Below, piece by piece: positions 17,963 through 20,690 of a stretch of DNA of 64,000 nucleotides (positions are counted from its first letter, which is position 1; the number at the start of each line of letters is the position of its first letter). The DNA lies in assembly GCA_963777505.1 (NCBI GenBank), contig CAVZQN010000004.1, positions 1,408,001-1,472,000 on the forward strand. The letters are read 5' to 3'. The notes below the pieces were generated by a model. It ran no database searches and had not been told where the DNA came from. It saw only the letters and a program-made list of their open reading frames with translations. The DNA is from an uncultured bacterium. GTDB taxonomy: Bacteria; Acidobacteriota; HRBIN11; JAKEFK01. The translations under genes were made by a program, and so were the position numbers.

Positions 17963-19434
17963 ACATCAGTTCATTGTTTCAAATCTTTAAGCCGGAGAAC
18001 GTCCTTCCCGATCCGGATTTATATACATACCACCTGACTGATTCCCGTGGGTATTTTCGGAGAGTTCATTTGCGAATTGAACCTGACAGACAAGGTGTTC
18101 TTTTTGTGGATGTGACTGATGTGATTCATCTCAATCCTACGGCGACTCAAATTGCATGGTTTGCACTTCAGAAGAAATCGGAAAAGGACACGATTCGCTA
18201 TTACCGGAAAAATTTTCGCGGCGAGTCAAAGCAGATCCAGAACGACATTCAAAGCATTTACAAGATGATTGATCACTTAGTGAGCGCTGATGGATGTCCT
18301 ACATGCGGACTCGATTTTATGGAACGGCGTCCACTGTTTTCAACACGCGCTCGTGCTCCATATAAAGCTGATGTTGCTTTAACGTATGGTTGTAACAACG
18401 CATGCAATCATTGCTATAACGCTCCGTCGCATTTAGGAATGGCCTCTCTGCAGGTTGAAGATTGGAAAAAAGTATTGATGCTGCTCAAGAAGAAAGGAGT
18501 GCCGCACATCATATTCACCGGCGGTGAAGCAACACTTCATCCAGATCTTCCTGAATTAGTAGAGTATGCGGACAAACTGGGTCAAATTACGGGTCTAAAT
18601 TCAAATGGGCGCCGCTTCTCCCAACCATCGTTTGTCGAAACCTTGCGCAAGGCCGGCCTCAATCATGTTCAGGTCACGCTCTCTTCAAGCCGTGCGCGAA
18701 TTCACGATCAAATCAATGGCGTCTCCGCATTTTCACAAACAGTAAAAGGAATCGAAAATTGTCTTTCCGGCGGTTTGCATGCAATAACAAATACAACTCT
18801 TATGAAATCAAACCGCGATCATGCGGAAGAGATTATCCAGTTCATCCATCGGTTGGGAATTCGGACATTTGCGATGAATGGAATGATTTATTCCGGCGGA
18901 GGTTATTGTGATCCGGAGGCGATTCCAGAAGAAGAGTTGCCACCTTTATTGATTCGAGTTCGCGATACAGCTCAGGAACTGGGTATGAAATTCTTATGGT
19001 ATACGCCTACCGAATATTGCCGAATGAACCCAATCGAACTTGAGATTGGAGCAAAGCGATGCAACGCTGCCGAGTATTCAATTTGTATCGAACCCAATGG
19101 AGATGTTTTACCCTGTCAATCTTTTTATGTATCGGCTGGGAACATTTTGAATGATTCCTGGGAAAAAATCTGGAATGGTGATTTGTTTCGCAGTTTTCGT
19201 GATCGCGAATTGGACCCTCGCTGGGCTGGATTGCCAGAAAAGTGCTGGGAGTGTCCTGAATTAAGTATTTGCGGCGGAGGATGTCGTATTGAACGCGAGG
19301 CGCGCGACGGCGAAACAGTTCATCAAGAAGGATCCTGTTCAAGCGGCAAAACTCAGAATCCGAGCTTTATTCCTATTGAATCACTTCAGCATATTGGAAA
19401 ACGCGCCGCAGGCAGGGGAGCAGGAGTCCGATGA
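17956..19434 (+). CDS. Radical SAM/SPASM enzyme with N-terminal PqqD/RRE-like domain
   Basis: CNNACNHC, FTGGE, SPASM RCNAA..IEPNGDVLPC..CWEC..ICGGGC; HLNPTATQIAW..IQNDIQ resembles a PqqD winged helix. ATG 17956 preferred over TTG 17920. Confidence 0.9.
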   Translation: MVNISSLFQIFKPENVLPDPDLYTYHLTDSRGYFRRVHLRIEPDRQGVLFVDVTDVIHLNPTATQIAWFALQKKSEKDTIRYYRKNFRGESKQIQNDIQSIYKMIDHLVSADGCPTCGLDFMERRPLFSTRARAPYKADVALTYGCNNACNHCYNAPSHLGMASLQVEDWKKVLMLLKKKGVPHIIFTGGEATLHPDLPELVEYADKLGQITGLNSNGRRFSQPSFVETLRKAGLNHVQVTLSSSRARIHDQINGVSAFSQTVKGIENCLSGGLHAITNTTLMKSNRDHAEEIIQFIHRLGIRTFAMNGMIYSGGGYCDPEAIPEEELPPLLIRVRDTAQELGMKFLWYTPTEYCRMNPIELEIGAKRCNAAEYSICIEPNGDVLPCQSFYVSAGNILNDSWEKIWNGDLFRSFRDRELDPRWAGLPEKCWECPELSICGGGCRIEREARDGETVHQEGSCSSGKTQNPSFIPIESLQHIGKRAAGRGAGVR

Positions 19435-20690
19435 GTGTGACATTTGGCGACCGGCTGAAAAAATACTTTATCCCTGAAATAGAGACAAACCAAAGCGGTG
19501 TCTATTCTTTTCGCCGTGAAAAAGGTGGAGCGATTACACGATTTCATTTAAGAATTGAAAAAAATGGCGCGGGAATGCTTCTGGCGAATTCTTCTGTTGC
19601 GTGCAGGCTTTCCCCATCAGGAGCTTTAATCGCAAAATCTTTACTTCAAGGGGAGAATGAAAACAAAATTCAATCCGACATCCGGAAAAATTTTCGTGAA
19701 GTACGCAGCGAAGAATTATCTCAAGACATTGAACGTGTCCGGCAATTTATTGAAACCCTTTCGATTCCTGATGATGCCTATCCGATTTTTAATTTGCAGG
19801 ATCCAGCACTTGAAACTCCGCGCAGCCTGATCGCGCCCTTTCATGCACAAATGCATGTCGGCTCGCCAGAAACTGTAAATCCGATCTTACAGAAACTGTG
19901 GGATGCGGGAATCCCTCATGTAACCTTCGAAGTAAGCAACATGCCTTCAATCGATGATTCCATTCGGAATGTTCAACGCGCAGAGGATATTGGCATGATT
20001 TGCGGAGTGCGCGCTCAGGGAAGCTGGTTTCAACAAAATGATGTCATGAAACGTCTTGCTCTTGCCGGAATCGACTACATTGTCACTCCGATTGTGAGTT
20101 CCGAAAAGGCCAATCACGACAAACTATTGGGTGCTGAAGATTATTCGGATACTTTGAAATGCTTCAGTGATTGCATTCAATGGGAAATATGTCCTGTAGC
20201 AGAGGTTGCAATCTTTAACGAAAACAAAAAAGACATTCCGAAACTTATTGGGACACTGAAATCGAAGAATGTAAGAAACATTCATTGCTTTGCGGTTGCT
20301 GAACCGTTGACCGAAGGGCTCAGTAGTAACGCAATTATTCAAACGGCTGTAGAAGTTCTTGAAGCTGCTAGCAAATTTGAAACACGTGTGATCTGGCTTC
20401 CTCCCGTGAGCCGGTCAACAAGCCTCGAAGAAGTTGTGAAAACGGGACCAAGAACCGCCGGAGATGTTTCTGTTTTTGTGGATCATTCAGGAAATGTATA
20501 CCCTTCGCGCGGACCGAAGGTTTCTGCAGGTAATCTTTTACAAATTCCCTGGAAAGAAATCTGGAGTTCGGGAGTTTTTCGGCAGTATCGTGATCGCGTT
20601 GAATCGAATACACACTGCAGTATCTGCCCAGGCATGGAAATCTGTGCAGCCGATTGCCCGGGCGATCCCAAAGGATGGGATACGGTATGA
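19431..20690 (+). CDS. Degenerate radical SAM/SPASM paralog (RRE-like domain, no CxxxCxxC)
   Basis: Colinear with the upstream enzyme but lacks the cluster loop and GGE; keeps CSICPGMEICAADC. Confidence 0.8.
   Translation: MSVTFGDRLKKYFIPEIETNQSGVYSFRREKGGAITRFHLRIEKNGAGMLLANSSVACRLSPSGALIAKSLLQGENENKIQSDIRKNFREVRSEELSQDIERVRQFIETLSIPDDAYPIFNLQDPALETPRSLIAPFHAQMHVGSPETVNPILQKLWDAGIPHVTFEVSNMPSIDDSIRNVQRAEDIGMICGVRAQGSWFQQNDVMKRLALAGIDYIVTPIVSSEKANHDKLLGAEDYSDTLKCFSDCIQWEICPVAEVAIFNENKKDIPKLIGTLKSKNVRNIHCFAVAEPLTEGLSSNAIIQTAVEVLEAASKFETRVIWLPPVSRSTSLEEVVKTGPRTAGDVSVFVDHSGNVYPSRGPKVSAGNLLQIPWKEIWSSGVFRQYRDRVESNTHCSICPGMEICAADCPGDPKGWDTV

Follow-up and report, generated by a model that had tools for sequence, protein, structure and literature searches.

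We analysed a 64,000-nucleotide stretch of DNA (the window) from an uncultured bacterium of the Acidobacteriota (HRBIN11; GenBank assembly GCA_963777505.1, contig CAVZQN010000004.1, positions 1,408,001 to 1,472,000 of the forward strand), in which an enzyme of the radical S-adenosylmethionine (SAM) superfamily with a SPASM domain is encoded directly upstream of a second, degenerate copy, referred to here as the pseudo protein. An earlier note, made from the letters of the window, had drawn attention to the second gene as a paralogue from which the loop carrying the radical SAM cluster motif, CxxxCxxC, has been deleted. Sequence comparisons support the view that the pseudo protein is a conserved, catalytically disabled, full-length paralogue of its active radical SAM/SPASM neighbour, and the pair probably modifies an invariant cysteine-alanine tail of an adjacently encoded membrane protein. 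The two genes and the relevant features of the second are as follows, in window coordinates.

17956..19434, + strand: active radical SAM/SPASM enzyme, 492 amino acids (aa) from its most probable start, the ATG at 17956 (PF04055, E 4.6e-27; PF13186, E 2.7e-12)
19431..20690, + strand: pseudo radical SAM/SPASM paralogue, 419 aa, its ATG overlapping the stop codon of the radical SAM gene (ATGA)
19488..19760, + strand: domain of the pseudo protein (residues ~20-110) resembling PqqD and the recognition element (RRE) of enzymes that act on peptides made by the ribosome and modified after translation (RiPPs), with an invariant TRFHLR strand (AlphaFold2, PqqD matches, structural alignments)
19857..19862, + strand: junction V143/G144, site of the missing 22-residue CxxxCxxC segment (profile-profile comparison and BLASTP)
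19926..19937, + strand: residues 166-169, FEVS, replacing TGGE, the SAM-binding 'GGE' motif (BLASTP and profile-profile comparison)
20445..20507, + strand: GPRTAGDVSVFVDHSGNVYPS, the SPASM beta-hairpin region, with the three upstream auxiliary-cluster cysteines replaced (BLASTP, family alignment and profile-profile comparison)
20616..20657, + strand: retained CxxCx5CxxxC motif (C396, C399, C405 and C409, with D408 and P410), invariant in 30/30 aligned sequences

The open reading frame (ORF) list gives the 419-aa frame of the pseudo gene as intact, and it contains APFHAQMHVGSPETVNPILQKLWDAGIPHVTFEVS, GPRTAGDVSVFVDHSGNVYPS and CSICPGMEICAADC; that of the active enzyme contains APYKADVALTYGCNNACNHCYN, KKGVPHIIFTGGE and KRCNAAEYSICIEPNGDVLPC. 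The two proteins align from the N-terminal domain to the last cysteine motif with 24% identity over 441 columns (BLASTP, E 3e-37), and profile-profile comparison of the two families aligns 400 columns with a probability of 100% (E 5e-59). In this comparison a single 22-residue gap in the pseudo family, which falls between V143 and G144, faces the segment YGCNNACxHCYNEPxRxxMxSL of the active family, and FTGGEpTL of the active family is aligned with TFxxxxxP. The GGE motif is conserved at the FEVS position in none of the 30 aligned pseudo-family members. In the SPASM region, the first of the upstream cysteines (GPRC) is kept in a subset of pseudo homologues, and R360-G361, which follow the hairpin, are invariant. 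Four things that the earlier note had read from the two sequences, namely the deleted cluster loop, the lost GGE motif, the loss of the first SPASM cysteines and the survival of the final CxxCxxxxxCxxxC motif in an intact frame, were all borne out by these alignments.

Domain searches give a similar picture. The only Pfam domain found in the pseudo protein is SPASM (PF13186, 25.7 bits against a cut-off of 21.5), which also matches 30/30 members of the pseudo family, while the NCBIfam SPASM model TIGR04085 reaches 24.7 bits, slightly below its cut-off of 27, and no NCBIfam family reaches its cut-off. The Radical_SAM domain (PF04055) has no match at E<=0.1 in the window's pseudo protein; 17/30 family members do have one at this threshold. 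The full SPASM pattern consists of seven cysteines that bind two auxiliary [4Fe-4S] clusters, and the pseudo protein falls short of it with four. Because both the cluster loop and the GGE motif are lost, the pseudo protein is predicted to be unable to bind or cleave SAM.

The upstream enzyme, by contrast with its paralogue, has the complete set of motifs: a PqqD/RRE-like N-terminal domain, a GCPTC linker, CNNACNHC as the CxxxCxxC motif, GGE and seven conserved cysteines in the SPASM region. Its cysteines are invariant or almost so in an alignment of 28 sequences, and CxxxCxxC is present in 61/62 partner ORFs, the exception being truncated by a contig end. PqqD matches 10/28 members of the active family at E<=0.1. 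The active enzyme reaches no NCBIfam cut-off either, the best match being AhbD (120 bits against 500). An additional invariant cysteine pair comes from the GCPTC motif, in the linker that joins the RRE-like domain to the barrel, and a cysteine downstream of the CxxxC motif is unconserved, several members terminating directly after the motif; the second auxiliary cluster of the active enzyme may be unusually ligated. Three Anaerolineae genomes (L086/G004, L087/G005 and L088/G003) encode, on other contigs, a second radical SAM protein (~470 aa), which shares 31-33% identity with the active partner.

The degenerate features are those of a family. A search of 5.8 billion clustered proteins returned 535 relatives of the pseudo protein at E<=1e-3, and the best 120 were inspected; they are 39-88% identical over the best BLASTP segment, or 39-71% where at least 88% of the query is covered. 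None of these 120 closest homologues has a CxxxCxxC motif. Three of them (P0018, P0026 and P0067; 244, 282 and 400 aa) are without cysteine in the C-terminal region, and all the others have the four cysteines at the same spacing. HMMER, run exhaustively against 1.84 billion cluster representatives, returned 321 matches at E<=1e-3, 85 of them at E<=1e-30, and CxxxCxxC is absent from the canonical place in all of the best 65 representatives. The first active-type protein in the HMMER list is P0185 (E 4.5e-41), and among 150 listed matches 13 carry CxxxCxxC before the SPASM region is reached, at positions 15-248 of the sequence. An alignment of 30 members from several phyla (38-71% identity) has 53 invariant columns, which include TRFHLR, D.YP, PHV, D.G, GP, RG, GN and C..CP....C..DCP.

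Selection on the pseudo gene was estimated as the ratio of nonsynonymous to synonymous substitution (dN/dS; Nei-Gojobori) from pairs of loci with at least 70% identity, which gave 61 pairs, 39 of them with dS<1. The median over these 39 pairs is 0.113 (range 0.076-0.253), and in 24 matched pairs the medians are 0.107 for the pseudo gene and 0.157 for the active gene. The pairs come from other lineages; the closest DNA relative of the window in the collections has only ~50% protein identity, so that the window's own branch lies outside this measure. The pseudo gene is under purifying selection that is as strong as that on its active partner. Conservation of the deletion across homologues and purifying selection were the two checks that the earlier note had set beforehand, and the deletion passed both.

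More distant relatives in this clade have also lost cluster cysteines. One group (P0158, P0183, P0211 and P0134) resembles the pseudo family, yet is without the C-terminal cysteine motif; a second (P0215, P0237, P0240, P0241, P0253, P0257, P0260 and P0268) keeps the loop length and GGEPT and has no cluster cysteines. P0240, with two cysteines in all, passes the Pfam cut-offs for both Radical_SAM (36.8 bits) and PqqD (30.3 bits). Cluster loss seems to have happened more than once in this clade.

An AlphaFold2 model of the pseudo protein built on the family alignment has a mean predicted local distance difference test score (pLDDT) of 85.5 and a predicted template modelling score of 0.84. It comprises an N-terminal part of four strands and three helices, a barrel of alternating strands and helices and a small C-terminal domain, the barrel having the partial (beta/alpha)6 TIM form that defines the radical SAM superfamily fold. 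Structural alignments of the model to the RRE-containing maturases SuiB and SkfB begin at model residues 27 and 36 and thus reach into the N-terminal domain. Sequence identity to maturases of the SuiB/SkfB/CteB type is 11-16%, and a profile search of PDB sequences finds only BlsE (E 1.3e-4). PqqD (PF05402) matches 14/30 members of the pseudo family at E<=0.1 (best 3.3e-4). As modelled, the pseudo protein is composed of an RRE-like domain, a radical SAM barrel and half a SPASM domain, and is without a radical SAM site.

The two genes belong to a five-gene cassette, the remaining features of which are as follows.

17627..17962, + strand: first cassette gene, encoding 111 aa with two hydrophobic helices at the N-terminus and a Zn-ribbon at the C-terminus (weak zinc-ribbon matches only)
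20694..22445, + strand: candidate substrate membrane protein, start uncertain (canonical-start ORF from 20793, signal peptide from CTG at 20694)
22386..22442, + strand: invariant C-terminal tail CACACAGCACACACAGGGR with the stop directly after it, the proposed modification site (homologue tails)
22523..23227, + strand: last cassette gene, a class I SAM-dependent methyltransferase (Pfam Methyltransf_11, E 2.1e-19)

Overlapping stop and start codons run along the operon, the stop of the Zn-ribbon gene overlapping the ATG at 17956 of the radical SAM gene. A scan with one genome per species found at least 206 stretches that encode a relative of the pseudo protein, and the best 80 loci were examined. 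These 80 are labelled as Acidobacteriota, Chloroflexota (mostly Anaerolineae), Planctomycetota, Sumerlaeota, Armatimonadota, a Desulfobacteraceae bin and, in one case, a Patescibacteria bin. When the locus ORFs are compared with the window genes by BLASTP, the order is Zn-ribbon membrane protein, active radical SAM enzyme, pseudo protein, large membrane protein (one or two copies) and methyltransferase. The active gene lies upstream of the pseudo gene in 63/80 loci (61 separate ORFs, one fusion in L063 and one in L077), the large membrane protein follows the pseudo gene in 79/80, and a methyltransferase homologue is found downstream in 53/80, many of the others ending earlier. A Zn-ribbon homologue precedes the radical SAM gene in most loci, and an alignment of 59 sequences shows its motif C..C ... 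C..CG..YQ.EE.PKW with at least 90% conservation. The best NCBIfam match of the methyltransferase is the DVU_1556 family (67.6 bits against a cut-off of 155).

Nearly all of the relatives come from metagenome-assembled genomes, and frameshifts and fusions such as those in L077, L024, L041 and L043 are therefore possibly assembly artefacts; in L077 a single ORF of 1161 aa covers both the pseudo region and the tail-bearing protein. In L063 (831-3539), an Armatimonadota bin, the active and pseudo proteins form a single open frame of 902 aa (fusion protein P0270), a single observation. In the window's genome (5.23 Mb, 95.9% complete) the pseudo and radical SAM genes are each present once. The pseudo gene is found in 7/31 related genomes, the window's own included, and is absent from a same-genus genome that is 96% complete, from which it follows that the cassette is accessory and patchy.

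Extra genes lie between the radical SAM and pseudo genes in part of the Chloroflexota loci (L009, L011, L014-L016, L019-L021, L023, L033, L054, L070, L076, L078 and L080). They encode a protein of ~235 aa with a C-terminal CxLCPRExCPGRR motif and a weak match, below cut-off, to PF02965, the activation domain of B12-dependent methionine synthase (E 2.3e-4); a Ser/Thr protein kinase (Pkinase, E 1e-45); and a polytopic membrane protein of ~175 aa that belongs to no family.

The candidate substrate was absent from the earlier note. Contig ends truncate 9 of 95 homologous ORFs. Of the 86 that are complete, 81 finish with CACAGCACACACAGGGR and a stop codon, and 68 have the full 19-mer CACACAGCACACACAGGGR; the five that do not match are one variant, one N-masked sequence and three apparent frameshifts. 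The whole protein is about 550-690 aa long, and outside the tail it is only 32-45% identical to that of the window. All 81 nucleotide versions of the tail are distinct and synonymous variation occurs at every codon position, which points to selection on the tail peptide; a DNA-level repeat was rejected as an explanation on the same ground. A back-translated tail pattern found the tail in 6/301 genomes of one Chloroflexota class, with no match in reversed-pattern controls. In all five new tail-bearing genomes the pseudo gene lies on the same contig, 1.8-2.3 kb upstream of the tail site, and all five also contain the active radical SAM gene, which adjoins the pseudo gene in four and is on another contig in G075.

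The start region of the tail-bearing gene, at 20687-20795 of the window, has a good in-frame signal peptide, LRSEFGLSTIAIVLLLSQIALTQ/SYKF, which can be aligned to those of 31 homologues; the stretch that encodes it contains no ATG, GTG or TTG, and a CTG is found at 20694. The ATG at 20687, which overlaps the stop of the pseudo gene, opens a different frame (MKAAIRIWLKYY...). Either the gene uses a non-canonical start or there is a one-base indel or frameshift near the start. At many Chloroflexota loci (e.g. L014, L016, L019, L033, L054, L066 and L078) two paralogues of the gene stand in tandem. The shorter form has a reduced transmembrane region and no DLSG.D.VTGD motif; the tail is identical in both forms.

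At E<=0.01, neither Pfam nor NCBIfam gives a match for the tail-bearing protein of the window, and a Pfam search of 32 tail-bearing members at E<=1 gave scattered matches in single members, none at the gathering score. In an Atlas feature search two clusters showed PF09972 (in 17% and 54%) and one showed PF20990 (in 92%), which is a lead only towards a DUF2207-type protein. An AlphaFold2 model (pLDDT 75.7) has a signal peptide, a beta-sandwich at residues 27-210 that is placed outside the cytoplasm and three transmembrane helices at 222-302, followed by a cytoplasmic part with a winged-helix-like and a helical domain and then by a disordered Gly/Ser linker that leads to the tail; in Foldseek the beta-sandwich matches ribophorin I/Ost1, from the oligosaccharyltransferase OST, and the N-domains of M1 aminopeptidases. 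Since three transmembrane helices follow the exported N-domain, the tail is predicted to be cytoplasmic and within reach of the radical SAM enzyme. Two conserved motifs, GDVAASFAGWAE.TMG and DLSG.D.VTGD.F.AL (alignment A4), lie ahead of the linker and might, as a speculation, be recognised by the two RRE-like domains.

In the scheme we favour, with moderate confidence, the pseudo protein acts as the non-catalytic subunit of a membrane-associated maturase for the cysteine-alanine tail, which it would present, and may hold one auxiliary Fe-S cluster. The maturase would be made up of the Zn-ribbon membrane protein, the active enzyme and its dead paralogue, and its target would be CACACAGCACACACAGGGR, the C-terminal tail that the membrane protein of the next gene downstream exposes to the cytoplasm. 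The dead paralogue would bind and position the substrate, providing a second recognition domain beside that of the active enzyme, and the methyltransferase may add a further modification afterwards. In SPASM domains the first three cysteines of CxxCx5CxxxC serve as ligands of the second auxiliary cluster and the fourth as a ligand of the first, so that the pseudo protein would have room for no more than one cluster, as it possibly does in most lineages; the fourth ligand of this cluster would be open or non-cysteine, with the invariant D408 or a cysteine of the substrate as candidates. Other SPASM enzymes act on cysteine to form thioether cross-links or to oxidize it, and by analogy both are candidate chemistries for the tail.

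The earlier note had placed the protein in a heterodimeric maturase as a non-catalytic partner for substrate presentation, scaffolding or electron transfer. The pseudo-enzyme part of this holds for a conserved paralogue, and a heterodimer is plausible in view of the operon overlap, the linkage in 63/80 loci, the orthologue of the active enzyme (53-57% identity) found on another contig in 5/5 genomes searched whose locus has no adjacent copy, and the L063 fusion, which suggests that the two proteins act jointly and physically. A complex prediction for the active and pseudo proteins, scoring 0.00 in two runs without controls, speaks neither for nor against binding.

Several observations weigh against this scheme. 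L063 aside, its support comes from co-location and co-inheritance, which would be expected of any component of the same pathway. In 17/80 loci no radical SAM gene lies upstream; for 7 of them the sequence available on that side is shorter than 1 kb, while the other 10, which include the five whose genomes were searched, hold none within 1.5-6 kb. In 19 further loci, 0.7-3 kb of other genes part the radical SAM gene from the pseudo gene, and, taken with the 10 loci, this means that tight translational coupling is not universal. The RRE-like region that the earlier note had read in the pseudo protein is supported only at the level of the family and of the fold; the window's own protein scores only 14 bits against PqqD (E 0.068), below the cut-off of 23.4. 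In P0158, P0183, P0211 and P0134 the C-terminal region is present but has no cysteine motif; a role in Fe-S binding or electron transfer is therefore not general, and the electron-transfer part of the earlier proposal is weakened. Finally, the polar barrel residues H163, D186, D215 and R319 are invariant in the pseudo family and would fit a ligand-binding or catalytic site, retained or new, as well as they fit a pure scaffold.

A wider proposal, which we put forward tentatively and at less than an even chance, is that the cassette makes a new protein-borne modification. Here a two-subunit maturase of live and dead radical SAM proteins, tethered to the membrane by the Zn-ribbon protein and with the dead subunit obligatory, would turn the invariant tail of alternating cysteine and alanine into a cross-linked product or into a structure that binds metal or resembles a cofactor, for example a thioether ladder or a protein-derived Fe-S or metal site, which would then be methylated. 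If true, this would define a function for a radical SAM/SPASM pseudo-enzyme and would extend RiPP-style maturation to a full-size membrane protein.

The invariant barrel residues also lead to the strongest of the alternatives, which we regard as unlikely though credible: that the pseudo protein has lost radical chemistry and become an enzyme of another kind, its barrel and remaining cysteine motif carrying out an independent step on the same substrate, such as handling or insertion of a metal or Fe-S centre on the cysteine-rich tail or non-radical thiol chemistry, with no role as a scaffold for the active enzyme. This would agree with a dN/dS as low as that of a true enzyme, with retention of the pseudo gene in genomes where it is unlinked from the radical SAM gene and with invariant motifs that have no counterpart in the active family (DNYPIFNL.DP, RAEDLGMI.G and CAADCP). 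However, several of the motifs align with PH..F, AG.xH and HD of the active family and are perhaps inherited structure, searches of NCBIfam, Pfam and PDB profiles matched no other enzyme family, and the L063 fusion suggests joint physical action.

More doubtful still is a free-standing chaperone or gatekeeper, in essence a PqqD-like protein of larger size, which would bind the tail or the conserved motifs preceding it, might keep the seven cysteines reduced or control timing, and would hand the substrate over with no stable complex formed with the radical SAM enzyme. Separate PqqD-type partners of radical SAM/SPASM enzymes are an established arrangement, and both the conserved PqqD/RRE-like N-terminal domain and the unlinked genes in some genomes would suit such a role; yet the active enzyme has an RRE-like domain of its own, a simple peptide chaperone would not need the 300 further conserved residues of the barrel and SPASM regions, and a natural fusion of the two proteins is known (L063). 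Local decay of a recently inactivated duplicate heading for loss, for which only the missing motifs themselves speak, is refuted by identical lesions in 120/120 closest homologues, by relatives at 206 or more places in species-representative genomes of several phyla and by intact frames with a dN/dS of ~0.11.

Between 17300 and 23500, promoters and terminators were no more frequent than chance predicts (9 where 8.5 were expected, and 8 where 6.9 were). PADLOC gave only generic viperin-type matches for the active radical SAM enzyme and a match for the methyltransferase, and nothing suggests a defence system. On the minus strand, the ORF list gives a 370-aa ORF at 13255-14367 with several C-terminal CxxC...CxxC zinc-ribbon repeats, which adjoins a 156-aa ORF (14382-14852) and secA (14953-17481).

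Work on radical SAM/SPASM enzymes treats them as single catalytic units, at times accompanied by a small helper of the PqqD type. In this family a dead copy of full length persists, under the constraint of a live enzyme, in at least five phyla, which argues for an essential part of the machinery. A conserved C-terminal cysteine-alanine tail is also unusual for a membrane protein, and its 17 residues, invariant in amino acids yet variable in codons, make it a concrete candidate substrate. A search of the full-text literature, whose coverage leaves out most subscription journals, found nothing on the pseudo family, the cassette or the tail, and the five-gene system appears to be undescribed so far.

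SuiB, SkfB and CteB (PDB 5v1q/5v1s/5v1t, 6efn and 5wgg/5why) are RRE-containing RiPP maturases of the radical SAM class with SPASM or twitch domains; they are active, with CxxxCxxC and SAM-binding motifs and 7-8 auxiliary cysteines, whereas the pseudo protein has neither motif and four cysteines. Enzymes of this type act on a short leader-core peptide, in contrast to the presumed substrate here, the tail of a membrane protein of ~550-690 aa. Paired catalytic and non-catalytic paralogues are found in Dph1-Dph2 of diphthamide synthesis and in the E1-like partners of YcaO cyclodehydratases, where one duplicated copy has lost catalysis and aids substrate binding or support; the analogy is functional only, the folds and chemistry being unrelated or distant. 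PqqD is a protein of ~90 aa and not a radical SAM paralogue. In the PqqD-PqqE arrangement a separate RRE chaperone serves a radical SAM/SPASM enzyme, whereas the helper here is a full-length degenerate copy of the enzyme. Unlike in the PqqD-PqqE split, the active enzyme of the cassette keeps its own RRE-like domain.

Radical SAM/SPASM homologues without the radical cluster are already recognised by curators, while the pseudo family, cassette and tail are not covered by the Pfam and NCBIfam libraries. Members of TIGR04347, the 'pseudo-SAM/SPASM protein' family, and of TIGR04304, 'GeoRSP system SPASM domain protein', lack the radical SAM cluster. The pseudo protein is of the same general kind but a member of neither, scoring 29.1 bits for TIGR04347 against a cut-off of 525 (E 5.8e-7, residues 151-284 only) and 15.4 bits for TIGR04304 against 300 (E 0.0077). 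Literature searches found no tested function for either family. The GeoRSP pair, TIGR04303 with TIGR04304, combines a radical SAM protein with a SPASM-only neighbour, like the pair described here, and the active enzyme scores 90.3 bits against TIGR04303 (cut-off 400); the associated genes for the Zn-ribbon protein, the membrane protein with the cysteine-alanine tail and the methyltransferase set this cassette apart from both TIGR04347 and GeoRSP. If the dead subunit is obligatory, other 'SPASM domain-containing' radical SAM homologues that are easily dismissed as decayed or mis-annotated would merit re-examination, among them the pseudo-SAM and GeoRSP families of NCBIfam and the cysteine-less relatives of the pseudo family.

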